A program made the position numbers and the translations under genes. Source: Kiritimatiella glycovorans (GTDB taxonomy: Bacteria; Verrucomicrobiota; Kiritimatiellia; Kiritimatiellales; Kiritimatiellaceae). Taken from it: a stretch of DNA of 32,000 bases. The number at the start of each line of letters is the position of its first letter. Position 1 is the stretch's first letter. The notes beneath the pieces were generated by a model. It worked only from the letters and a program-made list of their open reading frames with translations. It searched no databases and had not been told where the DNA came from. Shown one piece after another: positions 5,846 to 32,000 of this stretch. Location of the stretch: positions 1,830,001 to 1,862,000 of the forward strand of contig NZ_CP010904.1 of NCBI RefSeq assembly GCF_001017655.1, given 5' to 3'.

Positions 5846-5860
5846 ATATCCCTCTCTTTT

Positions 5861-9572: not shown

Positions 9573-9576
9573 CCTC

Positions 9577-10983: not shown

Positions 10984-12155
10984 CGTCGTCTCCCCATCTC
11001 GAGATACAGCGTGTCGTCGTCGCCATGCGGCAAGAAGAAGGTCTCGACGCGTCCGGCGAAGATCCTTTGCAGCGCGTCCTGGATCTGGCGGTCGCGATAG
11101 AAGGCGGGGTTGCGTTCATACAACTCGAGCATCACCAGAAACCGCTCCGATGCGCCCCGGACAAACTCGACTCCACGGGTCTTCGTAGCAAGAGCGGCTT
11201 GGATGATGGCTGCCGCCTGCCCGCTCATCTCGGAACTGAGCAGTACGCCTTCGACGCGCTCTTCGGCGGCCCGGATTGCAGCGGCGTCGCCATCCGCCTT
11301 GGCCTGCTCGTATGCGGCAATAGCCTCCAACATGGCAGGGGCGCCCATGCCCGCGACTTCGTTCAGCAGCGCAGTGCGCTGTTGTTCCGCCTTCTCGATC
11401 CGCTGTGCCTTCTTGCTCTGCGCCAGGTTGACGGCTTGGAAGGCTGCCGACACGGAAGGCGGAACCGCGCGGGCGTTCACCGAAACGTTGGCTATCACAA
11501 GCCCCGTATCCATGGCCTCAAGCGCGGCCTGCGCCGTGGCGCGAATCTGTTCGCCGGAAAGATCGCCTTTGTAGAAAGCCTCGATCGGGGTCCGGGCGAG
11601 CGCATGAACAGTGCCTTGTTCGAGTGCGTTGCGAACGACAGTCCGAGCGCGGTCCATGGACCCCGCCGTCTTCACGAAGCGCAGCGCGGGGGACCCGCCC
11701 ACGGTTTCGCTCGGCGACGCGAGGCGATAGGCAGCGGACAACCGAAGGTGCACCAGGTTCTTGTCGCCCGTGACCAGCGATGCGTCCCATGCCGAAGACG
11801 CCGTGCGATACGGATAGGCGTACTCGCTCTGCTCGGCCCAGAAGCACGTATCGAGTTCGATTTGCTGCAGCGTCGTGGGGATGAAGAACACCTCATCCAG
11901 CGGGCGGGGCAACGAGAAATAGGGGCCGCCGGGCGTGAAGACGCGCGATGGACCGCTGTCGGCAATCCGTCCGAATCGCGTCCGGATGGCGACCTTGCCT
12001 TCAGGCACGAAGAAGACACCGCTCAAGGCAAACGCAGCGAGCAACAGGACGACGAACCACTTCAGCAGGGCGAATACGCGCAGCAGAGACGCCTCGACCG
12101 CCTGCAGTGTGGCGGATTTCTGTGCCGCGTCCGTATGGCGGGGCGTACTACTCAT
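10980..12155 (-). CDS. SPFH/band-7 domain membrane protein (HflK/HflC-like paralogue 3)
   Basis: N-terminal TM helix (FALLKWFVVLLLAAFALSGVFFV), then an SPFH-like beta-rich part and a long Ala/Glu/Gln-rich helical region (AAFQAVNLAQSKKAQRIEKAEQQR). It has an 8-nt overlap with the upstream hflC-like gene. Confidence 0.75.
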   Translation of the reverse strand: MSSTPRHTDAAQKSATLQAVEASLLRVFALLKWFVVLLLAAFALSGVFFVPEGKVAIRTRFGRIADSGPSRVFTPGGPYFSLPRPLDEVFFIPTTLQQIELDTCFWAEQSEYAYPYRTASSAWDASLVTGDKNLVHLRLSAAYRLASPSETVGGSPALRFVKTAGSMDRARTVVRNALEQGTVHALARTPIEAFYKGDLSGEQIRATAQAALEAMDTGLVIANVSVNARAVPPSVSAAFQAVNLAQSKKAQRIEKAEQQRTALLNEVAGMGAPAMLEAIAAYEQAKADGDAAAIRAAEERVEGVLLSSEMSGQAAAIIQAALATKTRGVEFVRGASERFLVMLELYERNPAFYRDRQIQDALQRIFAGRVETFFLPHGDDDTLYLEMGRRR

Positions 12156-13098
12156 GCGTCGCCCCTTCCTGATGACCCGCGGGAGCGTTCGTCTGCGCGG
12201 GAATGAGCGTCTGGAGTAGATCGAACGGCTGGGTTTGGGGATCGATCAGAAACGTGGAGTTGTTGGAGAGCATGGTTTCGAGCGCTTCGAGTTTCCGCAC
12301 GAACACGGCAAACTCCTCGTTGCGGGCAAACACCTCGTAGTAGCGGGCCGCGGCGGCGTCGCCCTCCGCCCGAAGGGCCTGTGCCTTGCGGTTCGCGAAG
12401 GCCAGGATGCGGTCGCGGTCGCTTCTCGCCTTGGCCTCGATCCCGGCCGCGATCGCTTGTCCCTCGGATTGCGCGTTCTGAGCCAATCGGCGGCGCGTCT
12501 GGCGCATGCGCTCGTACACCGAGTTCGCAATCTGATCGGGGAACTGCAGGCGCTTGATGCCCACCCGGGCGATGCTGATGCCATAATCCTTGCCGGCCAG
12601 ATCCTGGCGCAGCCGCACCAGAATGCGCTCTTCGAGTTCTTGGAGCTTGAGCCGGGAGGGATCCGTGTTTGCCAACTCGTCCAAGGTGTAGTTGCCTACC
12701 TCCGACCGCGTGGTACGTAGGCGGTCTACGAGAAAGCGCGTGGCGTTCTCGTCGTCCTGCATGGAGCGCATGAAGGCAAGACCATCGCTTACGCGCCACA
12801 CGAGGTAGGTTTTCAGAATCACGATCTGCTTGTCCTTGGTTTCCTGCTGTTCCAGACGATCTTCGATCAAGCGCAGCCTTGTGTCGAAGAACCGCACTTG
12901 CTGGATAGGCCAGGGCCACTTGAAGTAGAATCCGGCCGATTGGCCGTCGCGATTGCGAACATCCGCCTCGTCGGCACGACCGAAAGTGGTGACGACGGCC
13001 GTTTGGTCGAATCGCACAACGAAGCTCGTTGCGTAGAGCACCAGTCCGGCAACCACACAAAGGGCCAGCAACCATCGAAGAACACGGTTCGTTTTCAT
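12148..13098 (-). CDS. hflC: HflC-like SPFH protein (protease modulator family)
   Basis: MKTNRVLRWLLALCVVAGLVLYATSFVVRFDQTAVVTTFGR...GISIARVGIKRLQFPDQIANSVYERMRQTRRRLAQNAQSEGQA...ARYYEVFARNEEFAVFVRKLEALE closely follows the HflC pattern. It has an ATGA overlap with the upstream gene. Confidence 0.85.
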   Translation of the reverse strand: MKTNRVLRWLLALCVVAGLVLYATSFVVRFDQTAVVTTFGRADEADVRNRDGQSAGFYFKWPWPIQQVRFFDTRLRLIEDRLEQQETKDKQIVILKTYLVWRVSDGLAFMRSMQDDENATRFLVDRLRTTRSEVGNYTLDELANTDPSRLKLQELEERILVRLRQDLAGKDYGISIARVGIKRLQFPDQIANSVYERMRQTRRRLAQNAQSEGQAIAAGIEAKARSDRDRILAFANRKAQALRAEGDAAAARYYEVFARNEEFAVFVRKLEALETMLSNNSTFLIDPQTQPFDLLQTLIPAQTNAPAGHQEGATHE

Positions 13099-15212
13099 CT
13101 GTCGTACATCTCCTCATCTAAATCGGTTTCGGGACTCGACGATCGCCCAGGCCCGCCACGTTGGATGTCAAACTCAGCAGCCTCGTCCAGCCATCCGACC
13201 CCGTCTTCGAATCCGGCGAAGTTGAACCGCAGCACGCTGCGATCGCGCTGAGAGAGTAGAACGTACTTCCGGCTGTTGCGCATGCCGTTCTCCATCGTGG
13301 TCATGGTGCGCCACACCGGATACATCGTGGGGCCGATACGAAGAAGGGCGATTTCACGGCGAAAGCGTTCCGCCTTGCCCGCCTCCTCAAGCTCGCGGCC
13401 CCAGCGATAGGCGAGAGCGTCGGCAAAGATGCCGGCGACCCGTCCGCCGCCCTGCTCCAATAGAGCCTCCTGACTGCCGGCGCTCGGCAACGCGTTGCCG
13501 GATTGCTCGGGAACGTCCGCCCGGGATTGCGTTTCCGAATTCACCATCGAAGCAAGCAGGTCCTTCGCCCTTTGCTCGTCGCCGAAGGCCTCGACCAGCA
13601 GGTGCGTTGCGTGGCTCTCTGCGTTCTGAATGGACGTTTCCCTGCGCTGGCGGGCGATCACGGTATCGTGGAAAGCCGATGCCGTCTGTTGCGGCGGATG
13701 GATCCCCGACATGCCGACATGGAGCACCTCGATCCCCAGCTGCAGATCGTCGACCTCATCCTGTATGGACGCAGCCATGCGCTCCGCCGCTTCATTGCGG
13801 CCTGCTCCCAGCAGGCTGTCGATTTCGTGGCGAAAGAGCTCGCGGGATGCAGCCGTCTCCGCCACCGCCCGAAACGTGGCCTCCGGATCCCGAAAGCTGC
13901 GAACATACAGCCCCAGATCGCGAATCCGGTACTCGACACAGACATCGCCGCCAATCAGCGAAACGGTTGGCGGACGCTTTCTGTCGGTCGGCGACCCGGT
14001 CGAATCGGGGGGGGCGCTACCGCCCGCGATGTCAGCCGGCGGTGCCACGATCATGAGGCTCTCTTCGCTCAATCCGTGCAGATTGGCCCACAGGATGGGA
14101 ACGTCGGGCCGGTACACATCCTGGCCGGCTTCAGCAGAATGCGAGCCCACATGGGTCCGCCTGATACGGCCGGTGTTCTCGACAACAGCGACATCAACCG
14201 GCCAGGGCGCTTTCAGGTGCAGCCCGGGGCCAAGCAGGCCAGGGCGGTATCTCCCAAACCGCAGGATCACTGCATGCTCTGAGGGCTCCACGATGACAAT
14301 GCAGGATAGCAGCACGAGAACAGAACCGAGGCCGATGAACAGAGGGCCGGCGGCGCGGCCAGCCAAACGCGGCAACGTGGTTTGGGAGACCGCAAAGCCG
14401 AACTGATAGTCCAGTGCGTCCACGATGCCCGCACGCAATCCTTCTGCACCTGTCACGGCCACTAACAGCCGCGAGGAGAAGGCGGGGGGCGGTTCGACGC
14501 TCTTCGATCGGGGACGAATGCAACCCAGTACAGCACCCGCCAGCAGTTCTATCCCGATGAGGGCAGCGGCGACGTTCGCTACAGTTGCCGCGAGGCGATG
14601 CGGCAGGTGCCATCCCACGAGCTGCCCGGCGAAGCCTGCGCACAACAACACGCCAGCCCAGACATGTACATGCCACCAGCCTAGCCCGTCACGTATCCGC
14701 GGGCCTTCTCCACTGCGTGCCACATGTGACATAAAGACCAGCACGGCAAAGCAGAGCAACGCAAGAACGGCACTGACGACGAGGCCCGCCACAGTTTGAG
14801 AGTGGGCAATCGGGAAGCCAGACGAACTCATGTCACCGATCAACGAACGCGAGGTGTACAGCAACGTTCCACCCGCGAGTGCGCTGAGCACGGGCTGCCC
14901 AATGCGCTGCATGAGCTCCGCCCACTCGCGCGCTCCCTTGATGAGCAGCGCCGGATCCGTCGTGTTGTCCGAATCGCCCCATCTGTTCGCGGTCACATCG
15001 GGCTTGCGCGCGAGATCGGCCTCCAGGCCCGTCACCTTCCGCCGCCAATGCAGCATGAGGGCTACATGCCCCCATAGAGCCCCGCCCGCAATCGCCAGAA
15101 CGGCGCCCGGGAAACAGCCGGCCGCGCCCGTCTTTCGGCCGACGGACAACCATGCCACGGCCAGCGCAAACTGAAGCGCGGCGCCGATCGTCACGAAACG
15201 CGTGGCGCACAT
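13095..15212 (-). CDS. Polytopic membrane protein fused to an SPFH/HflK-like domain (about 705 aa)
   Basis: The N-terminal ~300 aa carry several hydrophobic helices. An SPFH core follows (EHAVILRFGRYRPGLLGPGLHLKAPWPVDVAVV ... LQLGIEVLHVGMSGIHPPQQTASAFHDTVIARQRRETSIQNAE). I prefer the start MCATRF at 15212. The track start at 15239 (MTNDTSKAS) lies in the repeat. Confidence 0.75.
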   Translation of the reverse strand: MCATRFVTIGAALQFALAVAWLSVGRKTGAAGCFPGAVLAIAGGALWGHVALMLHWRRKVTGLEADLARKPDVTANRWGDSDNTTDPALLIKGAREWAELMQRIGQPVLSALAGGTLLYTSRSLIGDMSSSGFPIAHSQTVAGLVVSAVLALLCFAVLVFMSHVARSGEGPRIRDGLGWWHVHVWAGVLLCAGFAGQLVGWHLPHRLAATVANVAAALIGIELLAGAVLGCIRPRSKSVEPPPAFSSRLLVAVTGAEGLRAGIVDALDYQFGFAVSQTTLPRLAGRAAGPLFIGLGSVLVLLSCIVIVEPSEHAVILRFGRYRPGLLGPGLHLKAPWPVDVAVVENTGRIRRTHVGSHSAEAGQDVYRPDVPILWANLHGLSEESLMIVAPPADIAGGSAPPDSTGSPTDRKRPPTVSLIGGDVCVEYRIRDLGLYVRSFRDPEATFRAVAETAASRELFRHEIDSLLGAGRNEAAERMAASIQDEVDDLQLGIEVLHVGMSGIHPPQQTASAFHDTVIARQRRETSIQNAESHATHLLVEAFGDEQRAKDLLASMVNSETQSRADVPEQSGNALPSAGSQEALLEQGGGRVAGIFADALAYRWGRELEEAGKAERFRREIALLRIGPTMYPVWRTMTTMENGMRNSRKYVLLSQRDRSVLRFNFAGFEDGVGWLDEAAEFDIQRGGPGRSSSPETDLDEEMYDR

Positions 15213-15343
15213 ACTCGCTTTGCTCGTGTCATTGGTCATTGGTCATGTACTCGCTTTGCTCGTGTCATTTACTCACTTCGTTCGGGTCATTGGTCATTGG
15301 TTGCATCACGCGCCGCAGGCGCCAATGACTAATGACCACTGAC
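15213..15343. repeat. Composite heptamer-hairpin array
   Basis: ACTCGCTTTGCTCGTGTCATTGGTCATTGGTCAT occurs twice, followed by TCATTTACTCACTTCGTTCGGGTCATTGGTCATTGG, the hairpin GCGCC GCA GGCGC, and CAATGACTAATGACCACTGAC. It overlaps the ATPase stop. Confidence 0.9.
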
Positions 15344-17251
15344 CTCCAAATCCTCCAGATCCTCGCCTTCCCGAACGAGGCGAGCGGAGTTGACGATCAC
15401 GATGAACGTGCTTGCCGTGTGCAGCAGGACCGCGACGACGGGATGGATGATACCTGTTGCGCTCAAGGCGAGCATGCCGACCACGTACACGCTCGAGAAC
15501 ACTAGGTTCTGCCGCACCACGGAGGTCAGGCGGCGTGCCAGGTGGAAAAGGAAGGGAATACGATTCAGTTCGTTGTTCAGCAGAGCCATACGTGCCGCAT
15601 GGATCGCGGCTTCGCTACCAGCCGCACCCATGGCAATCGAAAGATCGGCTTCGGCGAGCGCCGGCGCATCGTTGATCCCGTCTCCGACGGCGGCAACAAG
15701 CCCCTCGTCGGCACGAAGACGCTTCACCGCATCCATCTTCTGTCCTGGGAGCAGTTCGGCGACCACATCCGTGAACGTCAGATGCCTGGCGACCGCCTCC
15801 GCCACAGGCCGGCGGTCTCCCGTCAACATGACACAATGCGACACGCCTTCATCCCTCAACTGGCCGACGACCTCGGAGGCACCGGGCCGCAACTCGTCTT
15901 CCAGGACTACCCGTCCGAGCAGGTTCCCGTTTTTTGCGATGAGAACCACGCTGCCCTGACGGTCGTCCTCGTCGGATTCAGATGCCATCTTGACGCCTGC
16001 ATCGATCAAGAACTCGCGGCGACCAGCCAACACCGTGTTACCACTCAAGACGCCACGGACGCCCCTGCCGGGCTCTTCCTCACAGTTCCGGATGTCGGCT
16101 GGGTGTATCTCTCGCTCTCGCGCGGCGCGCACAATGGCCTGTGCAGCGGGGTGGTTCGAATGCGCTTCGATGCCTGCCGCGAAACGCAGTAGCTCGTCCT
16201 CGGTAACTCCGTCGGCAGGTTGCAGGCCCACGACATGCAGACGCCCGCGAGTAATGGTGCCCGTCTTATCGAACACCACAGCCTTGATCCTCCCGGCGAT
16301 TTCGAGATCGGCAATGTTCTTGATCAGAATGCCCAGGCGCGCGGCGGCGCTGAGCGCCGCAACGGCCGCGGTCGGGCCGGAGAGGAGGATCGCGCAGGGG
16401 CAGGCCACAACCAGCATGGCAACCGTCCGATCCATGTCGCGTGTGAAGAAGAGCACGATGGAAGCCAGAATGAGCACCAGCGGCGTGTACCAGCCGGCGT
16501 AGCGGTCGACCAGACGCATGACAGGAGTGCGGGTGGCTTCGGCCTCCAGGATCAGCGAGCGCACTTGCTCGAGGGTTGTGTCCTGCCCCGCCCGTCCGAT
16601 CTCAACGTCCAAGACGCCCGTTACGTTCACCGTGCCCGCAAAGATGGAATCGCCTTCTCCCTTCTCAACGGGAAGGGACTCGCCGGTGATCGTCGCTTCG
16701 TTGAGCGTGCTTCGTCCTGCCACGATGATTCCGTCTCCCGGCACCAATTCCCCAGGCCGAACGCGGATACGCTCTCCGACGCTGAGCGCAGCCGCTTCCA
16801 CCGCTTCCTCTCCCGATGGCGTGATGCGGCGCGCCGATGCGGGGCGGAGGCGAATGAGCGCCTCAATGCTCCTTCGCGCGCCGGATGCCGAGCGGTCTTC
16901 GATCATGTTCGAGATCTGCACGAAGAACGCCACAGCGGCGGCAGTGAGATGCTCCCCGGCAGCAAACGCCGCACCGATTCCCAGCGCCGCCATGACGTTC
17001 AGATTGGGTCGGCTCAGAGCCAGGTCGCGCATGGCCGTTGCCACTAAGGGAAGACCCAGTACGACGGCGGCCGCTATTGCCACGATGTCCGCGTGGAACG
17101 GGTGCGCGAAGAGCCGCGACGCAATCAGAGCCGCCAGCAGCAGCATGCCGCCAAAGAGAAGAACGACGGTCCGCAGCGTAGCTGCAGGCCGATGAGCATC
17201 GCTGCTACCATTGGGGCTGGCAGATGGATTCTCTGAGTAGTCAGTTGTCAT
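15329..17251 (-). CDS. Heavy-metal-translocating P1B-type ATPase (CPC motif; no N-terminal HMA/CxxC domain)
   Basis: Motifs seen: TGESLPV (A-domain), VVACPCAILLSGP (TM CPC), DKTGTIT (phosphorylation site), HSNHPAAQAI (HP), MLTGD, GDGINDAPAL. Four predicted TM helices precede the A-domain. There is no GMxCxxC metal-binding domain. Confidence 0.95.
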   Translation of the reverse strand: MTTDYSENPSASPNGSSDAHRPAATLRTVVLLFGGMLLLAALIASRLFAHPFHADIVAIAAAVVLGLPLVATAMRDLALSRPNLNVMAALGIGAAFAAGEHLTAAAVAFFVQISNMIEDRSASGARRSIEALIRLRPASARRITPSGEEAVEAAALSVGERIRVRPGELVPGDGIIVAGRSTLNEATITGESLPVEKGEGDSIFAGTVNVTGVLDVEIGRAGQDTTLEQVRSLILEAEATRTPVMRLVDRYAGWYTPLVLILASIVLFFTRDMDRTVAMLVVACPCAILLSGPTAAVAALSAAARLGILIKNIADLEIAGRIKAVVFDKTGTITRGRLHVVGLQPADGVTEDELLRFAAGIEAHSNHPAAQAIVRAAREREIHPADIRNCEEEPGRGVRGVLSGNTVLAGRREFLIDAGVKMASESDEDDRQGSVVLIAKNGNLLGRVVLEDELRPGASEVVGQLRDEGVSHCVMLTGDRRPVAEAVARHLTFTDVVAELLPGQKMDAVKRLRADEGLVAAVGDGINDAPALAEADLSIAMGAAGSEAAIHAARMALLNNELNRIPFLFHLARRLTSVVRQNLVFSSVYVVGMLALSATGIIHPVVAVLLHTASTFIVIVNSARLVREGEDLEDLEVSGH

Positions 17252-17284
17252 TGGTCATGCACTCGCTCCGCTCTCGTCACTTGA
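17241..17284. repeat. Degenerate heptamer element (TCAGTTGTCATTGGTCATGCACTCGCTCCGCTCTCGTCACTTG)
   Basis: It resembles the CTCGCTTTGCTCG-type units at 10352-10385 and 15213-15275. It contains the ATPase ATG. Confidence 0.7.
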
Positions 17285-17592
17285 CGATGGCACGCCAGAG
17301 ACCACAGCCGCGTGAGCCACAGCCACGAGTGCCGACAATACGGCAGCCAGCCATGCGGCAGCCCACCGAAGCAGGGGCAGCCGCTCGCGCGGAAACGCCC
17401 CACAAGGCAGAACCACGTGTTTCCGCCGCGAGGTGCGGCCCTCCCGTTCTTGCGGCGGCGCAACGCTCACGAGTAGGCGATAGTGATCGTAGCGAGAATG
17501 GTCACAGCCAATTGGCCGCAACAGCTCCGCCGTGCCTGACTCGACGAGATCTTCGAGGAGGCACGTGGCAGCGGCAACAGAAATACGCAAGT

Positions 17593-17613
17593 GCGCCGCA
17601 GCATCCGCGGCGC
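17593..17613 (-). terminator. Candidate hairpin GCGCCGC-GGATGCT-GCGGCGC about 90 nt downstream of the receptor gene
   Basis: A 7-bp GC stem read directly from the sequence. It is followed (minus sense) by ACTTGCGTATTTCTGTT, which is only loosely T-rich, so it is weak as an intrinsic terminator. Confidence 0.2.
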
Positions 17614-17701
17614 GTAATGCATGCTTCCCAGCGGCGAATTGAAGTAGCTCTTGTTTCTTGTCCTGTTACCTGTCGCCGGTTGTTATCCGTCACCCCTCCT
17701 T

Positions 17702-19735: not shown

Positions 19736-19759
19736 CTTGAAATTCTCCCCTGTTGGTAG

Positions 19760-19994
19760 ATTGGTCATTGGTCATTTGGCCGCTGCGCGGCCGTCATTGG
19801 TGATTGGTCATCGGTCATTGGCCATTGGTCATTTGCGCCTACGGCGCGTCAATAGTCATTGGTCAATAGTCATTGGTCATTTGCGCCTGCGGCGCGTCAT
19901 TGGTCATTGGTTCTGGGTCATTGCCGCGAATGACTGATGACTGCGGGCGAAGCCCGCAAAATGACCAATGACTAATGACGCGGCCGAAGGCCGC
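19760..19994. repeat. 235-bp array of five heptamer-hairpin units (three in one orientation, then two inverted)
   Basis: Hairpins are GGCCGC TGC GCGGCC, GCGCC TAC GGCGC, GCGCC TGC GGCGC, GCGGGC GAA GCCCGC and GCGGCC GAA GGCCGC. They are separated by runs of GTCATTG / AATGAC heptamers. The array fills the whole gap between the small Cys/His protein gene and the receptor gene. Confidence 0.9.
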
Positions 19995-19995
19995 C

Positions 19996-20391
19996 TCAGG
20001 CGGGAGGTCCGCAGGAGAAGGGCAGGAGGCGCGGGGTCTTGAAATCCGGCTGACTTGGTACAGCCGGCAGGGCGATCTCGACAGGTGCGAACTGCGGCAA
20101 GGCGATTGCCACAACCGCCGTATCGACAGGAGTCTTCGCGAGCTGACAGATCGAGCAGGTTGACGGGTCGTGCGGCTTCCTTTGCGGGTGAGAGTCGCGC
20201 GAACGCTCGGGCGTCTCGTGGCCGTTCGCGTGCTCCCGCGAGTGGTCGTGCGAGCAACAAGAATGACGGACACCTTTCGCAATGTCGTCGTCGGCACAGG
20301 CCAGCTCCAGCCTGTGCATGGCGGGAACAAGCAGTGTCCCCACCACGAACAGGAGCAAGCCACCGATTGCCAGTTGTCTTCTCTCTGTCAT
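19996..20391 (-). CDS. Small Cys/His-rich exported or membrane-anchored protein (131 aa; possibly DUF2946-like)
   Basis: N-terminal hydrophobic helix (LAIGGLLLFVVGTLLVPA). Motifs HSCCSHDHSREHANGHE and STCSICQLAK. Codon third positions are strongly G/C. It is the first gene of the receptor/ATPase train and a paralogue of 23008..23400. Confidence 0.55.
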   Translation of the reverse strand: MTERRQLAIGGLLLFVVGTLLVPAMHRLELACADDDIAKGVRHSCCSHDHSREHANGHETPERSRDSHPQRKPHDPSTCSICQLAKTPVDTAVVAIALPQFAPVEIALPAVPSQPDFKTPRLLPFSCGPPA

Positions 20392-20497
20392 ACACAAAAC
20401 AAACGCGCTCTATCTCAACCAAGTTTGGGGCGCCTAACATACAACCAGCTACGGCAGGGGTCAATCCCAAATGGCGTGTGGCAAGCGGCATGAGAAG

Positions 20498-21691
20498 TGT
20501 AATGTGAAATGCCGCAGGTATAGGAGAGAGCGTTCCATGCCGTGGTTCGCTATCCTTTGTGGTCTTACAACAGGACAACAGAGGAAGGAGACGGCATGGA
20601 ACAGAATCAGAATAGCAGGAAGGGCAAGCACTTGACGAGGGTGGAGCGCATGGTGATTGAGCGGATGTCCCGTGGGGGGATCCCCCCACGGGACATCGCG
20701 GCCGCCTTGGAGCGTCACCCGCGTACGATCCAGCGTGAGCTCAAGCGCGGGACGGTGACCCACCGGGACTCGGAGTGGCGGGAATACCGGACCTACAGCA
20801 GCGATCGCGGCCAGGACCTCCATGATTACCACGCCACCGCAAGGGGGCCCGGTCTGAGGCTGGGCCGCAACTATGCGCTGGCCGAATTCATCCGTTGCCG
20901 CATTGTGGAACATAAGGAATCGCCCGATGTAGTCGCCTTTCGGATGCGTCAGGCCGGTCTGGAGGAGGTGGTGTGCACCAAGACGATCTATAACTACATC
21001 GATAAAGGCGTCATTTTCGGGCTCAGCAACGAGTCACTGTGGGAGAAGCGTAAGCGAGCCAAGCGGCGCAAACGCGGCGCTCGGCGGTTGGCGAAGCGGA
21101 TTTCCAAAGGCAAAAGCATCGACCAGCGTCCCGAAGGAGCCGAGACGCGCGAGGAGTTCGGACACTGGGAGATGGACCTGGTGACCGGCCCCACGCGCGG
21201 GTCCAATGCCGCCCTATTGACCCTGGTGGAACGCAGACATCGGATCACGATCATTCGCAAGCTGCCTGATAAGAGCCAAGCCAGCGTGCTCAAAGTTCTC
21301 AGAGGGCTCGAGCGTGAACATGGCTCCCGCTGCTTCCGTCAGATCTTCAAGACCATCACGGTCGACAACGGCAGCGAGTTCCTGGACTTCGAAGCCTTAG
21401 AAGCCTCTTCCTTCTCGAAGCAACAGCGAACCCAGATCTTCTACGCCCACCCATACTCATCCTGGGAACGCGGATCGAACGAGAACGGCAACAGGATGAT
21501 CAGACGGTTCGTGGCCAAGGGCCGGGATATCGCGCGCTTTACCAAGCAGAAAATCCGCGACATCGAGCTATGGATCAATAACTACCCGCGCCGGATCCTC
21601 GACTTCATGACCCCTCACGAACTCTTCACGAACGAACTCAAAACGATCTCATAAATGAAACAAGACCACTACATGCGGCATTTGGTTTACA
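20498..21691 (+). mobile_element. IS30-family insertion sequence
   Basis: A single DDE transposase ORF. Imperfect terminal inverted repeats are TGTAATGTGAAATGCCGCAGGTA (20498-20520) and the reverse complement of 21669-21691, TGTAAACCAAATGCCGCATGTAG. The boundaries are approximate. Confidence 0.75.
20596..21654 (+). CDS. IS30-family transposase
   Basis: An N-terminal HTH region (LTRVERMVIERMSRGG, RTIQRELKR). DDE-domain motifs GHWEMDLV, TVDNGSEF and PYSSWERGSNENGNRMIRRF. GGAAGGAG lies 5 nt upstream of the ATG at 20596. Confidence 0.95.
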   Translation: MEQNQNSRKGKHLTRVERMVIERMSRGGIPPRDIAAALERHPRTIQRELKRGTVTHRDSEWREYRTYSSDRGQDLHDYHATARGPGLRLGRNYALAEFIRCRIVEHKESPDVVAFRMRQAGLEEVVCTKTIYNYIDKGVIFGLSNESLWEKRKRAKRRKRGARRLAKRISKGKSIDQRPEGAETREEFGHWEMDLVTGPTRGSNAALLTLVERRHRITIIRKLPDKSQASVLKVLRGLEREHGSRCFRQIFKTITVDNGSEFLDFEALEASSFSKQQRTQIFYAHPYSSWERGSNENGNRMIRRFVAKGRDIARFTKQKIRDIELWINNYPRRILDFMTPHELFTNELKTIS

Positions 21692-21728
21692 ACCTACCGT
21701 GTGGCAAGCGGCAGAGGAAGGAACTGTC

Positions 21729-21772
21729 ACCAATGACCAATGACGCGGCGAAGCCGCACATGGCTCATGACC
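21729..21772. repeat. Heptamer-hairpin element (CACCAATGACCAATGAC GCGGC GAA GCCGC ACATGGCTCATGACC)
   Basis: Read directly. Confidence 0.85.
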
Positions 21773-21786
21773 GAGCGATTTGGGTA

Positions 21787-21814
21787 TTGACAAGGTCATA
21801 TATATCTGTATTCT
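21787..21814 (+). promoter_or_regulatory. Sigma-70-like promoter candidate TTGACA-16 nt-TATTCT, 7 nt before the ATG of the DUF4143 ATPase (near-leaderless)
   Basis: A consensus -35 hexamer within a locally AT-rich patch of a GC-rich genome. There is no Shine-Dalgarno sequence between it and the ATG at 21822. Confidence 0.3.
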
Positions 21815-21821
21815 GACCATT

Positions 21822-22970
21822 ATGTACACCAGATTACTGAAGCAACCATGGGCCACTGGACAGAGTTTCTTCCTGTTTGGCCCGCGAGGTACAGGAAAGA
21901 CGACCTGGCTGCATCGGGGTCTCGATGCCGAAGGCAGTCTCTACCTCGACCTGCTGAACGACGACCTGTATACCGAGCTGCTGGCTCGGCCGCACCGGCT
22001 GGACACGTTGGTTGGCGATCGGCGCTGGGACTGGGTCGTGCTGGACGAAATCCAGCGCGTTCCCGCGCTGCTGAATGAAGTGCACCGGCTCATCGAGAGC
22101 CGGGGACTCCGTTTCGCCATGACGGGTTCCAGCGCCCGAAGCCTGAGACGCAGGGGCACGAATCTACTGGCCGGGCGCGCTCTTACGTTTCACATGCACC
22201 CGCTGGCCGCGGCGGAACAGGGCGAGGACTTCGACCTCGCCCGCGCCATTCGGTTCGGACAGCTTCCGGGCGCACTGAAGAGTGCGGCGCCGGATGCACA
22301 TCTTGCGTCCTATTTCCGCACCTACCTCCGCGAAGAAGTCCAGGAGGAAGGTCTGACGCGTCGACTGGGGAACTTTGCCCGTTTTCTTGAAACGGCGAGT
22401 TTCTCTCAGGGCTCCCCGCTCAACGTCTCCGCCGTGGCCCGGGAAGCGGCCCTTGACAGGAAGGTTGTGAACAACTACTTCGGCATCCTGGAAGACTTGC
22501 TCATCGGTCATCGGCTGCCGGCATTCACGAAGCGCGCGCGACGCAGGCTGACGTCGCATCCCAAGTTCTACTTCTTCGATGCGGGCGTGTATCGCTCGAT
22601 ACGCCCCATGGGGCCTCTGGACAGTCCCGAAGAAGCGGAAGGCGCCTGCCTGGAGACGCTGTGCTATCAGGAGCTGCGAGGCGTCAACGACGCGCTCGGC
22701 TTGGGATATGACCTGTACTATTGGCGCACAAGCGACGGCACGGAGGTCGACTTCGTGTTGTACGGCAAGGCCGGCATTCTTGCCTTCGAAGTCAAACGAG
22801 CCGCCCGCTACACCGCGAAGGACTTGAGCGGCTTGCGCAGTTTCAAACGCGACTACCCCTCCGCGCGCTGCTTCCTGCTGTACGGCGGGCATGACCGCCG
22901 CCAGGAGGGGGATATCCAGGTCTGTCCTCTCGATCAGACATTGCCCGCGCTTCCCGCCATACTTGCTTGA
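21822..22970 (+). CDS. AAA+ ATPase with a DUF4143 C-terminal domain (AAA_14 family)
   Basis: FLFGPRGTGKTT (Walker A) and WVVLDEIQRVP (Walker B). Later motifs FARFLETASFSQGSPLNVSAVARE and YYWRTSDGTEVDFVL are typical of DUF4143 proteins. The start is chosen at MYTRLL. Confidence 0.9.
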   Translation: MYTRLLKQPWATGQSFFLFGPRGTGKTTWLHRGLDAEGSLYLDLLNDDLYTELLARPHRLDTLVGDRRWDWVVLDEIQRVPALLNEVHRLIESRGLRFAMTGSSARSLRRRGTNLLAGRALTFHMHPLAAAEQGEDFDLARAIRFGQLPGALKSAAPDAHLASYFRTYLREEVQEEGLTRRLGNFARFLETASFSQGSPLNVSAVAREAALDRKVVNNYFGILEDLLIGHRLPAFTKRARRRLTSHPKFYFFDAGVYRSIRPMGPLDSPEEAEGACLETLCYQELRGVNDALGLGYDLYYWRTSDGTEVDFVLYGKAGILAFEVKRAARYTAKDLSGLRSFKRDYPSARCFLLYGGHDRRQEGDIQVCPLDQTLPALPAILA

Positions 22971-27697: not shown

Positions 27698-27711
27698 GAA
27701 GGGGCATGGGT

Positions 27712-27733
27712 CCATGGTCATTGGTGATTGGTG
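27712..27733. repeat. Short heptamer run (CCATGGTCATTGGTGATTGGTG)
   Basis: Read directly. Confidence 0.7.
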
Positions 27734-27769
27734 CGGCAAAGAGAAGACAGGAACATGGAGGATAGGCGG

Positions 27770-28357
27770 ATGAAGAAGAGATGGCTTGGATTGATGGTAG
27801 TGGCTGCGATGGTCGTCGGCGTGGGGTGCGGGAAGAAGGCGGAGCAGGGCTCGGTCGAGCCGGTAGCCGTGCCCAAGGCGTTTGTCAGTGAAGAGCCGGC
27901 CGGAGAGCCGACACCGATCCCTGAAGCACGCAAGCTGCCACCGGGGACGGATGTGCTTCTCAAAGGGCTCGTCATGGGTGTGCGCAGTCCGTTTGTCGAG
28001 GGCCGCGCCCTGTTCATTCTCGGCGACGAAGCCACGATCACGCCGTGCAACGCCAAAGACGATGACCATTGCTCCATGCCCTGGGACGCCTGCTGCGATC
28101 CGCTCGAGGTGCGTGCCGCCGGCACGGCGGCGATACAGGTGCTGGACGATACGGGCGAGGTTTTGGAGCAGGGCCTCAAGGGCGTGAACGGCCTCAAGGA
28201 ACTGAGTCGCGTGACCGTCGCCGGCGCCGTGGCGCCACACTCGACGACGAACGCATTCGTCGTCAACGCCGCGTCGTTGTACGTGGAGCCCGAAGCAAGC
28301 AACCAACCAGAAGCCAAAGACGCCCACGCAACCTGCCCGAGCTGCCCCGCAAAGTGA
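27770..28357 (+). CDS. Cys-rich putative lipoprotein embedded in the efflux operon (195 aa)
   Basis: MKKRWLGLMVVAAMVVGVGCG is a signal peptide with a lipobox-like Cys. GGAGGA precedes the ATG. There is a Cys/His/Asp cluster (TPCNAKDDDHCSMPWDACCDP) and a C-terminal HATCPSCP. I recognise no family. Confidence 0.65.
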   Translation: MKKRWLGLMVVAAMVVGVGCGKKAEQGSVEPVAVPKAFVSEEPAGEPTPIPEARKLPPGTDVLLKGLVMGVRSPFVEGRALFILGDEATITPCNAKDDDHCSMPWDACCDPLEVRAAGTAAIQVLDDTGEVLEQGLKGVNGLKELSRVTVAGAVAPHSTTNAFVVNAASLYVEPEASNQPEAKDAHATCPSCPAK

Positions 28358-28367
28358 TGCAGGCCAC

Positions 28368-28431
28368 AAATGACCAATGACCAATGACTAATGACCAGTG
28401 ACCGCCGCGCAGCGGCCAAATGACCAATGAC
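28368..28431. repeat. Heptamer-hairpin element (AAATGACCAATGACCAATGACTAATGACCAGTGAC CGCCGC GCA GCGGC CAAATGACCAATGAC)
   Basis: Read directly. Its last ATG is the start codon of the TolC-like gene. Confidence 0.9.
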
Positions 28432-29773
28432 AAAAACCCGCACATTCGTGGCCATCGCGCTCCTGACCGTATGCTTATCGCCAGCCGAGGGAAGCAGCAC
28501 AAACCGTGTCCCGTCCCTTCCAACCTGGGGCGAGGCGGTCGGTAGGGCCGAGCTGGACGCGTGGATCGCGGCCGCCATGGTGGCTGCGCCTTCACTGGAC
28601 GCCGCGGAGCGAGCGGTACGCGTGGAGGCCGCGGGCGGCAGGGCGGCGCGTTCCGGGCGTTGGCCCGATCTCACGCTGGAAGGCGACCTGCGCGCCGGCC
28701 GGCGGAATACCGCGATGACCGGCGGAGAGACGCTTGACGTCGAATCCGTGGCCGCCCGCGCGTCGGCCGCATGGGACCTCGATGTCTTCGGGCGAGTGCG
28801 CGCCGAAGTCGGCGCCGCGCGCTTCGCGGAGCTGGCCGCCGACCACAGGCGGCGTGACCGCCGGATCGCCTTCGCAGCCGACATGGCGGAAGCGTACGTG
28901 CTGGGGCGTCTCTGGAACGACCGCCTTCGGATCCGTGACGAGGCCGTGGCGGCGCACGATGCCCTGGTCAGGTACGCGGACGGCCGAATGAAGGTAGGCC
29001 TGGCCCTGCCGGCCGAGCGCGACCGTCTCGAGGCCGAGCGACAGGCCGCCAGGCAGCAACGGGTACATGCGCAGGAAGAGATATCCGATCTCGACGCACG
29101 GTGGCGCTACCTCGTGCCGGAATACGAGGCGCCGGATCTGCACTCGCTTGGCGGCCTCTCGTCCGCCGAGCCTGTTTCCGCTCCGCCGGAGACGGCGATC
29201 CATGCGTATGCGGTGAATCGCCCGGATGTCCTGGCCGCGCACGCCCTCTGGCAGGCGGCGGGGGAAGGGGCGCGCGGCGCCGCGCGCAACCGGTTGCCGA
29301 CGGTGTCCGCCATCGTAACGGCCGAGGGCGAGGGCCCGTCCCCCGTTGACGAACCCGAAGCCTGGACTGCCTGGGCGGGCGTGCGCCTGTCCCTTCCCGT
29401 CCTGGCGCCGGGTCGTTCAGCCCAGGTAAACATCCGGCGGGAAGAAGCACACATCCAGGAGGCTCTGTTCGAAGAGACCGTGGCCCTGGCGATTCGGGAC
29501 ATCCGTCAGGCCTACGCGCGCCGACTCCACGCTGAACAGGCATGGCGTGCAGCGCAGGTCTCCGCCGACCGCCTGCGGGAGTCGTTCGAATCTTTCAAGC
29601 GCCAGTTCGAGCAAGGACGTGTGCCGGTTCCCACCGTCGAGCGCGCGAAGCTGGACTGGCTCGCCTCCGAAGAAGCGATGCGCGTCCGTTATGCGGAAGT
29701 CCTCCTGCGCCAGGTCGATCTCGTCCGTGCATGCGGCGGCCCAACAGACACGGCACTCCACTCCGGCAACTGA
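28427..29773 (+). CDS. TolC-family outer-membrane efflux protein
   Basis: Signal peptide MTKTRTFVAIALLTVCLSPA. The two-repeat helical/beta pattern is typical of the OMF family (LDAAERAVRVEAAGG...WPDLTLEGDL...; later PDVLAAHALWQAAGEGARGAARNRLPTVS). It is the last gene of the efflux operon. Confidence 0.85.
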   Translation: MTKTRTFVAIALLTVCLSPAEGSSTNRVPSLPTWGEAVGRAELDAWIAAAMVAAPSLDAAERAVRVEAAGGRAARSGRWPDLTLEGDLRAGRRNTAMTGGETLDVESVAARASAAWDLDVFGRVRAEVGAARFAELAADHRRRDRRIAFAADMAEAYVLGRLWNDRLRIRDEAVAAHDALVRYADGRMKVGLALPAERDRLEAERQAARQQRVHAQEEISDLDARWRYLVPEYEAPDLHSLGGLSSAEPVSAPPETAIHAYAVNRPDVLAAHALWQAAGEGARGAARNRLPTVSAIVTAEGEGPSPVDEPEAWTAWAGVRLSLPVLAPGRSAQVNIRREEAHIQEALFEETVALAIRDIRQAYARRLHAEQAWRAAQVSADRLRESFESFKRQFEQGRVPVPTVERAKLDWLASEEAMRVRYAEVLLRQVDLVRACGGPTDTALHSGN

Positions 29774-29806
29774 GCCAGGCGGAAGCACCGCGCGCGAACG
29801 CGCCCG

Positions 29807-29908
29807 GTGGTCGTCTTGACGGGTGCCCGACAGACAGGCAAGACTTCCTTGGTCCAACGGCTGTTTCCTGCTTATAGCTATGTGAGCCTGGATCTGCCGG
29901 ACCATGCT
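29807..29908 (+). pseudogene. N-terminal fragment (about 34 codons) of a DUF4143/AAA_14 ATPase gene
   Basis: VVVLTGARQTGKTSLVQRLFPAYSYVSLDLPDHA matches the Walker A region of this family. After it the frame degenerates (TSSLRSCSVTWLICREK). Confidence 0.5.
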
Positions 29909-30041
29909 ACATCTTCCCTCCGGTCGTGTTCTGTCACCTGGCTGATTTGCCGGGAAAAAACATGTCGGCCCGGGTACACCGCCGAGACGACGCCAGACAA
30001 CACCGTCAAGGCTGCCTGCCTTCTCAAACGGACACGCGCAT

Positions 30042-31337
30042 TCATGATCTCTGCGCCTCTTCACAACCTGACAGCAGGTAACGCCAGGCGGGAATGGAGT
30101 TGGGTTCGGCCTCGGACAAACCCGGCGCATACTCGTGGTAAACCAGGTGTCCCCGTGCCTCGGGCCAAAGGGTCCTTCCGAACTCCATGACGTTCTTCTC
30201 GCGCTCGAATGCGGCATCGTCGGCCAGGCTCCAGCACGTGTTCGCAAACCAGGCGCCCTCGCCGTCGCACAGGTCGACTTCATGAGCATTCGAGTAGTAG
30301 TAGAGGTCCCGACGGCGTCGGCGAGCCTCCAGAAAGACGGCCGTCTCCAGCTTGTGGCCGACGTCGCGCTGGGGGTATGCCTTGAAAGCCGCGACGAGAC
30401 CGGGGTCGATCACATGCAACTTCTTGGGATTGTGCTCCTGCTTGCGCAACGACTCGTCGCGTTTCGGCACCATGAAGACCAGAGACGCATCCTTCAGGCA
30501 GCCGAGGTACTCGTGCAGCGTGTTCTTCGACACCGCCAACCCCAGCGATTTGAAGTCACGGTGTAGCTTGCTGACGTTGATCAGCGATGCCGTGTTCCGA
30601 AAGCAGTACCTTAACAGGGTTCGCATGACCTTCTCGTTCCGTACTCCATAACGCTCGACCACGTCCCTGAACAACATGAGCGAGGCGTACTCCTCCAGGA
30701 TCAAGGGGCGCAGCGGCGCCTCGGCGAGCACGATCTCGGGGAAGCCGCCCCATGTCAGATACTCGACAAGCTCCGCGCGCGCGCGGCTCTCGTCGCGAGC
30801 GCTGAACGAGGATATCTCCACCTCTCGAAACGAGAGAAACTCCCTGAAGCTCAGGGGAAACACCTCCAACGTGATGCTGCGTCCCCGCATTGCGGCAGAC
30901 AGGTCGCGGGCCAGAAGCCGGGAGGACGAACCGGTAACAAAGATCGATATATCCTCGGTATCTTTAAGCCGCCTGACCCAACGCTCCCAGCCGGGTACGT
31001 CCTGCACCTCGTCCAGAAAGAGGTAGGTCTTGCCGGAGGCCGTATCGGGGTACAACTCGTTCAGGCTGCGAAGCACAAGATCCAGTTCTTCGGCGCGCAC
31101 GGGGTGCAGGCGATCATCCTCGAAGTTCAAGTACACGAGCTGTCGCCGGTCCACGCCTTGCCGGACGAGCCGGTGCATGGCGTCGAACAGCAGGAACGTC
31201 TTTCCGGAGCGGCGCGGCCCCGAAAGCCCCACCACTTTGCCGGTGTCCGCCGGGAGAGATCTATCGCGAGGACGACAAACCGGCAATTCGCCTTCGATGA
31301 ACTGGCGCAACACATACTTCAGATTGTAACTGTTCAT
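30042..31337 (-). CDS. AAA+ ATPase with a DUF4143 domain (AAA_14 family), second intact copy
   Basis: VVGLSGPRRSGKTF (Walker A), YLFLDEVQDVPGW (Walker B), a DUF4143-like middle region, and a C-terminal YYYSNAHEVDL restriction-endonuclease-like motif. Confidence 0.9.
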   Translation of the reverse strand: MNSYNLKYVLRQFIEGELPVCRPRDRSLPADTGKVVGLSGPRRSGKTFLLFDAMHRLVRQGVDRRQLVYLNFEDDRLHPVRAEELDLVLRSLNELYPDTASGKTYLFLDEVQDVPGWERWVRRLKDTEDISIFVTGSSSRLLARDLSAAMRGRSITLEVFPLSFREFLSFREVEISSFSARDESRARAELVEYLTWGGFPEIVLAEAPLRPLILEEYASLMLFRDVVERYGVRNEKVMRTLLRYCFRNTASLINVSKLHRDFKSLGLAVSKNTLHEYLGCLKDASLVFMVPKRDESLRKQEHNPKKLHVIDPGLVAAFKAYPQRDVGHKLETAVFLEARRRRRDLYYYSNAHEVDLCDGEGAWFANTCWSLADDAAFEREKNVMEFGRTLWPEARGHLVYHEYAPGLSEAEPNSIPAWRYLLSGCEEAQRS

Positions 31338-31390
31338 AGCGACAATATAGATACTCCCGTCCCTTTATGCAAGGACAATCTCGCATCTCG

Positions 31391-31517
31391 TTGGCCATTT
31401 GCGGCTTCGCCGCGTCATCGGTCATGGGTATCCCATTCCGGGCCGTTTCCTTTGTGGGCCTCTCACTCATTCAATCGCACTCCCATATCCTCCCACCATT
31501 GGCCAATGACCAATGAC
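31391..31517 (-). mobile_element. Gene-less ghost of the four-helix-bundle cassette (both arms retained, interior of about 370 nt deleted)
   Basis: In minus sense, GTCATTGGTCATTGGCCAATGGTGGGAGGATATGGGAGTGCGATTGAATGAG aligns to the cassette 5' end, GTCATTGGTCATTGGAGGGAGGATATGGAAATGCGATTGGAAGAA. AAAGGAAACGGCCCGGAATGGGATACCCATGACCGATGACGCGGCGAAGCCGCAAATGG aligns to the cassette 3' end, AAAGGAATCCGGCCCCGAATGGGATACAAATGACGCGACGAAGGCGCAAATGA. Confidence 0.7.
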
Positions 31518-31612
31518 GGCCGCGCAGCCTGCCCGCATTGCCCGCCCGCAACGCTGGCGCGTAGCGACTGCGGGCAGGCTCCGCAAAGCGATGTAGGCGG
31601 GCGGCCAAATGA

Positions 31613-32000
31613 CTACTGATTACACTCCCGGCAAACACCCAGCACGGTGATCCGGTGCGCTCGCTGCTTGAAACCCGCCTTGCGGCAGGCGATGGCGATG
31701 CGCTGGTGGATCTTGGGGTCGAGGAACTCGATGAACTTCCCGCACTGCTCACAGATCAGGTGCTCATGGTCTTCGAATCCCAGGGTCCGGTCGTAGTGCA
31801 CCTCGCGACCGGCTTCGCGGATCTCGCGCAAGAGACCGGCACGAACCATCAGGCCCAAGGTCTGGTACACGGTGCCACGGCTCACACGGGCCGGGCCGGC
31901 ATTGCTCAGATCCATGGCAAGCTCCTCGGCCGTGAAATGGCCGTCGCCTCTGAACACGCGATCGCAAACAATCCGGCGTGGCTGAGTGACCCGCAGACCC
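31613..32000 (-). CDS. Fur-family metalloregulator (Fur/Zur/PerR-type); the 5' end runs off the right edge
   Basis: Winged-helix part FTAEELAMDLS...VSRGTVYQTLGLMVRAGLL, the metal-site motif DHEHLICEQCGKFIEF, and a second CxxC (CRECN). The frame stays open to position 32000 (GLRVTQPRRIVCDRVF upstream of the track Met). The TAG stop is followed by TCATTTGGCCGC from a repeat. Confidence 0.85.
   Translation of the reverse strand, partial: GLRVTQPRRIVCDRVFRGDGHFTAEELAMDLSNAGPARVSRGTVYQTLGLMVRAGLLREIREAGREVHYDRTLGFEDHEHLICEQCGKFIEFLDPKIHQRIAIACRKAGFKQRAHRITVLGVCRECNQ

Follow-up and report, generated by a model that had tools for sequence, protein, structure and literature searches.

A probable internally deleted relic of an intervening-sequence-like PF05635 gene cassette between the fur and DUF4143 genes of Kiritimatiella glycovorans

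Introduction

The closest known system to the cassette described here is that of the S23p-carrying intervening sequences (IVSs) of 23S rRNA, found in Leptospira and Coxiella burnetii and among the rRNA insertions of CPR bacteria, with which it has the PF05635 protein family in common. The IVS of Coxiella is 428 nt long, carries an S23p ORF and ends in a 28-bp terminal stem that is cut by RNase III; the function of the IVS ORFs and the mobility of the elements have been debated since the early 1990s (PMC4990558). In CPR rRNA genes, PF05635 ORFs are scattered over the insertion sites, and ORF-containing and ORF-less insertions share sites, the ORFs being mostly of the LAGLIDADG type (bioRxiv 2024.02.27.582315). 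Avd, a protein of diversity-generating retroelements, has a homologous fold and belongs to the same family (PMC10053308). PF05635 genes were also reported inside cas operons in 2013, for example between cmr3 and cmr2 in Pleurocapsa, a position that was read as functional association in a report describing no arms, reciprocal empty sites or gene-less derivatives (PMC3936711).

Gene cassettes of integrons would be expected to come with attC and the IntI/attI system. The Correia elements of Neisseria are transcript-resident MITEs of about 100-150 bp with terminal inverted repeats, which are intergenic, co-transcribed and able to form a long hairpin. The STRR arrays of cyanobacteria are tandem 7-bp repeats, located in intergenic positions within operons and forming hairpins, for which roles in transcript stability and in coupling have been proposed (PMC2670836).

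The present analysis concerns a stretch of 32,000 nucleotides (the window) with a GC content of 63%, whose DUF4143 ATPase, ExbD and four-helix-bundle (4HB) protein are 100% identical to AKJ64816.1, AKJ64798.1 and AKJ64797.1 of Kiritimatiella glycovorans (Kiritimatiellota). It holds an intact cassette of about 490 nt with a 4HB gene, and a short gene-less element between a fur gene and a DUF4143 gene. The cassette, not far from the S23p-carrying IVSs in size (428-444 nt), also has in common with them an ORF enclosed by terminal inverted repeats, predicted here to form a long stem, and a sporadic distribution that suggests horizontal spread. Unlike the IVSs, which reside in a 23S rRNA helix, it lies at a protein-gene junction of an mRNA operon (ExbD/TonB, and Fur/DUF4143 for the short element), and its arms are tandem heptamers and GNA-loop hairpins holding the start and often the upstream stop of the neighbouring genes, whereas the IVSs are without such arms. 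Of known repeats, STRR arrays come closest to the arms, the arrays in the window being likewise tandem heptanucleotides, intergenic and hairpin-capable; however, STRR are cyanobacterial, while here, in Kiritimatiellota, the arrays form a left and a right arm, inverted with respect to each other, on either side of an ORF or of what remains of it.

The other comparisons are looser. The short element resembles Correia-type MITEs in size and inverted repeats but, unlike them, lacks a parent with a transposase gene, a recognisable target-site duplication and a demonstrated multi-copy family of common structure. Avd differs in its context, since no reverse transcriptase, template repeat or variable repeat was found near the cassette. 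No integrase is among the annotated genes of the window, and the cassettes are single and scattered in operons rather than arrayed. The Pleurocapsa gene belongs to the same family and likewise stands between neighbouring genes of an operon unrelated to it. In the literature searched we found no description of the arm architecture, of reciprocal operon junctions or of gene-less derivatives, and the genome paper of K. glycovorans makes no mention of cassette arms, junctions or gene-less derivatives (PMC5148204).

The intact cassette

The intact cassette is found on the minus strand, flanked by ExbD and TonB, within an ExbB-ExbB-ExbD-TonB-TPR operon. Its parts and neighbours are, in transcript order:

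7063-7470, minus strand: ExbD gene, ending at the left arm.
7020-7065, minus strand: left arm, with the ExbD stop TAG (7063-7065), heptamers, the hairpin CGGGC-TCC-GCCCG and further heptamers.
6576-7010, minus strand: 4HB gene (PF05635 / TIGR02436; AKJ64797.1; 144 aa), assigned by HMM matches; its Shine-Dalgarno (SD) and start region is 6990-7019.
6574-6615, minus strand: right arm, with AAATGAC, the hairpin GCGACGAAGGCGC and then (CCAATGA)n.
5915-6586, minus strand: TonB gene, starting in the right arm.

Along the transcript the cassette reads GGGAGGA, ATG and then an ORF ending in ..GPEWDTND. The stop codon of the 4HB gene (..TNDQ*, 6576-6578) is held by the last heptamers of the right arm, and the start codon of TonB (6584-6586) lies in the same arm, 7 nt upstream of that stop and in another frame.

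The assignment of the gene is firm: the PF05635 HMM matches it over its full length with 84.6 bits (cut-off 33.8; E 6.6e-24) and TIGR02436 with 80.7 bits (cut-off 24; E 8e-23). A family profile matched PDB 2GSC, and a PDB search with the single sequence gave no match. Its dN/dS values against three homologues, 0.07-0.16, indicate that the intact ORF is under purifying selection. HMM scans of this sole ORF of the cassette gave no transposase or recombinase domain, PADLOC had no match for the protein, and viral contigs yielded no matches in either a protein-based search or a search with the 3′-end pattern. Site scans of the cassette and of the short element found no promoter-like or terminator-like sites, and an Rfam scan of the window returned no rRNA or other family at the gathering threshold, the sole hit being a chance snoRNA match (E 0.1). 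The homologues considered are the 120 best of 828 in all, with identities of 55% or more, and a second K. glycovorans paralogue is not among these 120. The genome of K. glycovorans thus seems to contain one close intact copy of the cassette, at least one relic and many gene-less arrays.

The heptamer/hairpin arms

Arms of the heptamer/hairpin type occur at about 12 intergenic sites of the window. Near-matches to a double heptamer number 46, against an expectation of 0.13, and exact heptamers occur 36 times where about 2 occurrences would be expected. The STRR2 unit of cyanobacteria, TTGGTCA, is a rotation of TCATTGG, the heptamer of the left arm. In most cases seen, the upstream host gene is ended by a TCATTAG/TAGTCAT variant of the heptamer. 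Heptamers are few in the metagenomic relative L008 outside its own cassette.

The left and right arms of the intact cassette are inverted copies of each other, and their duplex was calculated at −59.6 kcal/mol, against −36.7 ± 4.9 for shuffled sequences. Four of six cassettes have arm duplexes of −59.6 to −70.6 kcal/mol (z −4.6 to −9.2); the duplexes of L037 (z −2.7) and of L008, whose arms are degenerate (z −1.5), are weaker. When the whole cassette is folded, the minimum free energy structure brings its termini together in a pairing that encloses the ORF; the z-score is a modest −2.3. The same pairing signal would be expected of inverted repeats acting solely at the DNA level.

The arms have also left their mark on the proteins. 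Among the best 120 of the 828 homologues, 42 have a C-terminus of the form ..ND(x), compared with one of 133 control proteins, and in eight the reading frame continues through hairpin modules (..NDAPQAQMTND..). The ND tails are encoded by heptamers in the six cassettes examined as DNA, which argues that the arms travel with the gene across lineages.

Filled and empty junctions in relatives

The first-pass annotation, made from the letters of the window, had taken the cassette for a discrete unit and not an ordinary resident gene, and comparison with relatives bears this out. L008, a JGI metagenome sequence, carries an orthologous receptor-DUF3450-ExbB-ExbB-ExbD-TonB-TPR operon with 66-84% nucleotide identity, and in it a cassette 78.7% identical to window positions 6582-7064 is located at another junction, between the long and the short ExbB genes. 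The sites are reciprocal: the ExbD/TonB junction, filled in the window, is an intact ATGA overlap in L008, and the ExbB/ExbB junction, filled in L008, is an ATGA overlap in the window. Two insertions would account for this arrangement more readily than two precise excisions each restoring an ATGA overlap, which are less likely. At the filled sites the TAG of the upstream gene lies inside the left arm or directly adjoins it, and the downstream gene starts at an ATG of the right arm. The start of TonB accordingly reads MTNDLSSFFAPRW in the window, where it comes from the last heptamers, and MKRAMPVQDLPRFFAPRW in L008. Filled and empty junctions are too diverged for a target-site duplication to be read, and the ends of the cassette merge with the ATGA junctions.

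Arms of the same architecture also surround homologues of the gene in unrelated operons of other organisms and other phyla, in cassettes that are all co-oriented with the upstream gene:

L001-L003: between a DtxR-like repressor gene and FeoA.
L037: upstream of CheR.
L034: after AspRS.
L038 (a Magnetococcus MAG): between an M20 peptidase gene and RecD2.

Taken together, the junctions indicate that the cassette is a discrete insertable unit at gene junctions in K. glycovorans and other bacteria.

The short element between fur and the DUF4143 gene

Segment 31391-31517 had been proposed to be a miniature, internally deleted derivative of the cassette. The strings quoted in support were confirmed on the minus strand of both 31391-31517 and 6574-7067. 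The element is longer than first thought, as its left arm takes in a further GC-rich segment of 88 nt and ends with an outer heptamer at 31606-31615. In transcript order the locus comprises:

31613 to beyond 32000, minus strand: Fur gene, one flank of the element.
31606-31615, minus strand: outer end of the left arm, reading TAGTCATTTG; the Fur stop TAG (31613-31615) directly adjoins the outer heptamer.
31518-31605, minus strand: GC-rich segment of 88 nt with interleaved inverted repeats, in place of the 13-nt hairpin of the intact copy.
31496-31517, minus strand: inner left arm, GTCATTGG TCATTGG CCAATGG.
31463-31495, minus strand: 5′ gene remnant, with the SD GGGAGGA, ATG and six codons (MGVRLNE in all), then an in-frame TGA.
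31454-31462, minus strand: filler of 9 nt at the deletion junction (GAGGCCCAC), with no confident alignment.
31428-31453, minus strand: 3′ gene remnant AAAGGAAACGGCCCGGAATGGGATAC, which codes for ..KGNGPEWDT; compared with the intact copy it has lost 1 nt.
31390-31427, minus strand: right arm, with the degenerate heptamers CCATGAC CGATGAC, the hairpin GCGGC-GAA-GCCGC (31401-31413) and then AAATGGCCAAC.
30042-31337, minus strand: DUF4143 ATPase gene, the other flank.

Fur ends in ..CRECNQ* beside the element. The core of the element is about 130 bp, non-coding and bounded by inverted repeats, of which 16 nt (31413-31428 with 31503-31518) are 88% complementary. The 88-nt segment looks like a nested insertion. 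It is present once in the window, apart from short chance matches and matches to arms, and the idea that it is a dispersed repeat was rejected on that account. That the two DUF4143 genes are recent duplicates that carried the right arm along was likewise rejected, the genes being only about 23% identical. The predicted fold of the element has −104.6 kcal/mol (z −2.4).

The homology of the element to the gene was examined after heptamers and hairpins had been stripped from it; the two leftover segments were searched against the whole window with the element itself masked. The best match of the 5′ segment GGTGGGAGGATATGGGAGTGCGATTGAATGA, which contains the SD, the ATG and the first codons, is 6991-7021, with 26 of 31 positions identical and a score of 21 (shuffled segments: mean 12.5, maximum 19). 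The 3′ segment AAAGGAAACGGCCCGGAATGGGATA (..KGNGPEWDT) matches best at 6617-6642, where 23 of 26 columns are identical with one gap, at a score of 19 (shuffled segments: mean 12.8, maximum 17). In neither case did any of 200 shuffles reach the observed score. Both matches are colinear, on the same strand and at opposite ends of one 4HB gene. The local alignment of element and cassette that the first-pass annotation had proposed was run with gaps, a long gap being cheap, and ties both cassette ends to the element across one long gap; by tblastn, KGNGPEWDTHDR matches ..KESGPEWDTNDA.., that is, residues 124-144 of the 4HB protein. The similarity thus extends beyond the generic arms into both gene ends, and the description of the element as an internally deleted derivative holds.

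Some of the dimensions first given have to be revised. The missing gene body is about 348 nt (6643-6990) instead of about 370 nt. Of the last 15 or so codons said to be retained, a gene-specific 3′ remnant of about nine stands, and the remainder of the quoted stretch is arm sequence. With about eight N-terminal and about nine C-terminal codons, the gene-derived segments being GGGAGGATATGG..TGCGATTG and GGCCCSGAATGGGATAC, the element no longer encodes a PF05635 protein. The TGA in frame at codon 8 of the 5′ remnant and the 1-nt indel make it a pseudogene, and it differs from the intact copy by about 15%. The endpoints of the deletion are blurred by the 9-nt filler, and no flanking direct repeat that could explain the deletion was found at the element.

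A 22-nt 5′ signature, GGAGGATATGGNNNTGCGATTG, is common to the element and the intact copy. Searched in genome and metagenome collections, it gave only chance matches in unrelated coding sequence and no other 4HB cassette; because it was found at no other such cassette, the two copies are taken as one lineage-specific subtype. A possible 3′ remnant at 19869-19946 (tblastn E 0.004) was not counted, as it is mostly heptamer-encoded.

Gene-less units and the element in other strains

A unit with left and right arms and no gene is also found elsewhere in the window:

10376-10497, minus strand: gene-less left-arm/right-arm unit, with the TrmO stop TAG inside TCATTAG, heptamers, the SD GGAGGAG, ATGACTAATGACTGA (MTND*) and a right arm supplying the DUF3450 start.

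Its left arm and leader are identical to those of the L001 cassette at 35 of 39 positions, of which only about 10 nt lie beyond the heptamers, so the resemblance is suggestive only, and the unit may derive from a cassette of this kind by still more extreme reduction. A similar gene-less unit is present in an unrelated genome (L034, 12255-12400). The centres of these other gene-less units differ from that of the element at 31390-31615. A series from intact cassette through a relic with gene ends to empty arms is plausible, its last step resting on little beyond SD sequence.

The short element is identical in two environmental sequences of the species. One, L028, is 98.6% identical and has the linkage to Fur. 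The other, L039, is 99.8% identical over 28901-31544; its similarity is gone left of about 31544, inside the GC-rich segment, so that the core of the element stands beside a different left flank and without the fur linkage. The breakpoint reflects a recent rearrangement at the arm or else a chimeric assembly, the latter being disfavoured because the joint shares only 11 nt. The relic unit or its neighbourhood could have moved in L039. The loci of Fur orthologues with 75-80% protein identity (L029, L030) have no element and no DUF4143 gene downstream, and their Fur ends differ; no orthologous site with a full copy of the cassette was found among them. The deletion junction 31454-31462 occurs at one locus only in the window and the loci compared, this being the same locus in L028 and L039, and there is one relic with gene-derived ends and these breakpoints in 32 kb.

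Origin of the short element

We consider that 31390-31615 is probably what is left, as a pseudogene with an internal deletion, of a promoter-less, IVS-like gene cassette of which an intact copy is at 6574-7065, and that it most probably decayed in place. The resemblance would be trivial if it were generic to any two heptamer/hairpin arrays and involved no gene-derived sequence. Such arms stand at about 12 intergenic sites of the window, so similarity from arm to arm is expected; however, the arm-free segments match best, within the window, at the two termini of the 4HB gene, in the right order and frame and with scores above all 200 shuffles, and tblastn recovers GPEWDT, which leaves a generic origin very improbable. 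More can be said for the possibility that the relic is now kept as an RNA element, either as a 3′ stem-loop stabilising or processing the fur transcript or as an MGVRLNE* leader upstream of DUF4143, its cassette origin being only history. A strong SD and ATG are kept, the fold is stable, effects on transcript stability or translational coupling have been suggested for the heptamer arrays (STRR) of cyanobacteria (PMC2670836), and the element is identical in the two further environmental sequences. But those sequences are 98.6-99.8% identical overall, so that the identity of the element is uninformative on constraint; there is no Rfam match and no terminator-like T-run, and L039 lacks the fur linkage. 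We regard such a function as improbable, less so than a generic resemblance.

The rival with the greatest weight is that the element is a true MITE, non-autonomous and retaining the terminal inverted repeats of the cassette, which is or was copied to new sites by a trans-acting enzyme that is encoded elsewhere or depends on the 4HB protein. Its form would suit one: a non-coding core of about 130 bp with 16-nt arms of 88% complementarity, whose terminal and subterminal sequence is common to a longer element. Gene-less units at 10376-10497 and in L034 (12255-12400), the over-representation of heptamer/hairpin arrays noted above, the presence of the core beside two different left flanks in near-identical strains, and the 75 transposase genes counted in the genome paper (PMC5148204) point the same way. 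Yet the long partner encodes neither a transposase nor a recombinase domain, the junctions, too diverged to be read for one, show no target-site duplication, the deletion junction has no second copy in the window or the compared loci, the other gene-less units have different centres, and about 15% divergence together with a nested insertion means that any amplification was not recent. The classic autonomous/MITE relationship claimed in the first-pass annotation is thus unsupported, given a partner without transposase, a single relic with these breakpoints and the marks of decay, and we hold a MITE origin to be unlikely, if clearly better than the two preceding alternatives. The in-frame stop, the 1-nt indel, the nested 88-nt insertion and the divergence of about 15% are explained by decay at least as well as by mobilisation in trans, and decay of a once intact cassette is the reading that we prefer.

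A model for insertion and decay

For the cassette and its preferred history as a decaying unit we propose the following model. The cassette would be transcribed by read-through from the host operon. In its CCAATGA repeats, ATG and TGA occur in all three frames, and the TCATTAG variant provides a TAG, so that the flanking genes would keep a stop and a start through arms that replace the native ATGA overlap, with translational coupling presumably preserved. Because the repeats supply ATG and TGA in every frame and the arms stand in for the overlap, the cassette can sit inside an operon without obvious polarity. By analogy with the S23p-carrying IVSs of 23S rRNA, the inverted arms may pair in the transcript as a long stem that encloses the ORF and would be processed. 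The unit could be copied by gene conversion, in which arm homology would direct it into arrays already present or into ATGA junctions, by a trans-acting single-strand transposase recognising the hairpins, or by an RNA-mediated route, all three being candidates. At the fur locus, about 348 nt of the ORF would have been lost, followed later by the stop, the indel and the nested insertion of 88 nt, most probably where a full cassette once sat.

A wider generalisation can be offered only tentatively, and we think it possible but doubtful. PF05635 genes might be promoter-less inverted-repeat cassettes of several phyla that colonise stop/start junctions of operons, remain non-polar by means of ATG and TGA in every frame and of a stem of the RNase III type, and decay to gene-less arrays. 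The element beside fur would then be an intermediate caught in the process, STRR-like arrays would be footprints of such cassettes, and the IVSs of rRNA would be a special case.

Significance

In the operons compared here, PF05635 appears as a bounded unit at protein-gene junctions, with reciprocal filled and empty sites in orthologous operons, and at least one derivative of the cassette has lost its gene and kept both ends. With defined ends, a cultured host and a complete genome, the cassette makes the question of the mobility and function of IVS ORFs testable. On this view the arm stem should be a site of processing, the 4HB protein should bind the GNA-loop hairpins, and strains should be polymorphic for the insertion. 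The findings are also a reason for caution where a PF05635 gene in a cas, che, feo or tonB operon is taken to act together with the genes around it.

Heptamer/hairpin arrays in the window

Many intergenic sites of the window are occupied by arrays of TCATTGG or CCAATGA heptamers and a hairpin, the elements that form the left arm (TCATTGG heptamers with a hairpin) and the right arm (hairpin with CCAATGA heptamers) of the four-helix-bundle (4HB) cassette. TonB, DUF3450, an SPFH gene, the P-type ATPase and the OEP gene all take their annotated ATG from right-arm heptamers. For TrmO and the P-type ATPase, the TAG stop lies within a variant heptamer, TCATTAG, and ExbD and Fur end at a TAG adjoining the first heptamer. 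The long ExbB ORF (8102-9580, minus strand) opens at an ATGA overlap and continues across a left-arm array that is stop-free in that orientation; its product as read has 492 aa, versus 472 aa in L008, a relative's metagenome contig with a syntenic TonB operon. Translation probably begins instead at the ATG that follows this array, at about 9504.

Array features of the window
5860-5909, 9505-9570, 10376-10497, 15229-15342, 17241-17254: heptamer/hairpin arrays
19758-20005, 21730-21764, 27711-27731, 28367-28430: heptamer/hairpin arrays, continued
5883-5895, 7036-7048, 10394-10406, 19779-19791: arm hairpins, examples
19883-19895, 19944-19956, 21745-21757, 31401-31413: arm hairpins, further examples

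Four different 5-bp stems (GCCGC, CGGGC, GCGCC and GCGGC), each perfectly complementary, occur among the eight arm hairpins that are strictly flanked, and seven of the eight loops, read on the CCAATGA strand, are GNA triloops closed by C-G. Since C-G-closed GNA triloops form unusually stable DNA mini-hairpins, a structural role of the arm hairpins, possibly in single-stranded DNA, is hinted at.

Genes and elements associated with arrays

A small lipoprotein-like gene (about 27771-28357, plus strand) lies between the MacB and OEP genes; a Pfam search of the ORFs overlapping it gave no match. Left-arm-type and right-arm-type arrays flank this gene, and the whole unit (27711-28430, plus strand) is like a cassette with different cargo. 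In L008 a methyltransferase gene, absent from the window, is inserted between ExbB-short and ExbD (11060-11120 region). In front of it are a degenerate left arm and a leader, CCATTGGAGAGGGAGCATGGATGCGGATTG, similar to that of the 4HB cassette, TCATTGGAGGGAGGATATGGAAATGCGATTG. A gene-less unit is found in L034, an unrelated genome of 57% GC.

Gene-less unit
L034 12255-12400: left arm with two hairpins; AAGAGGG; ATGTGTGAAATTTCCCAATGA (MCEISQ*); right arm with two GNA-loop hairpins

Scans of genome and metagenome contigs for the 22-nt pattern did not return the window's own two matches; the K. glycovorans genome is apparently not among the contigs open to such a search, although the protein collection includes its proteins.

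DUF4143 and IS30-like genes of the window
30042-31337, minus strand: DUF4143 AAA ATPase gene
21780-22970, plus strand: DUF4143 AAA ATPase gene
20542-21654, plus strand: IS30-like transposase gene (HTH_38 and rve), element 20507-21683

PDC-S01, a candidate defence family of PADLOC, is matched by each of the two DUF4143 ATPases (E 1.6e-91 and 7.5e-56). Despite a mutual identity of only about 23%, each gene has a right-arm hairpin (..ATGACGCGGCGAAGCCGCA.ATGGC..) some 20-55 nt upstream of its start. The environmental K. glycovorans contig L039 carries the core of the gene-deleted cassette relic, DUF4143 and OEP at 99.8% identity, with a left flank (L039 1-156) unrelated to Fur; the breakpoint against the window (31545 onward) falls inside the GC-rich left-arm segment of the relic.

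The IS30-like element has 14-nt inverted ends (20507-20520 and 21670-21683), with a TGTGGCAAGCGGCA repeat just outside both (20477-20490 and about 21701-21714), and is flanked by the window's largest array and another right-arm array.

Age of the arrays

The TonB-dependent receptor gene and DUF3450 are adjacent in L008 (7549-7565) and are separated in the window by a block (10489-17700) of a TrmO-like gene, three SPFH genes and the P-type ATPase, with arrays at its borders. The native DUF3450 start region seems to have left a remnant at about 17660-17700 (AAGGAGGGGTGACGGATAACAACCGG versus AAGGAGGGATGACGGATGGCAACCGG in L008). Two array sites, one at the TonB/TPR junction and one upstream of the receptor gene, are orthologous between the window and L008.

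Shared array sites
Window 5860-5909 and 19758-20005; L008 12766-12800 and 5400-5500

At these shared sites the consensus heptamers are kept in K. glycovorans, whereas those of L008 are degenerate, which argues that the arrays are old and have been kept 'fresh' in one lineage.
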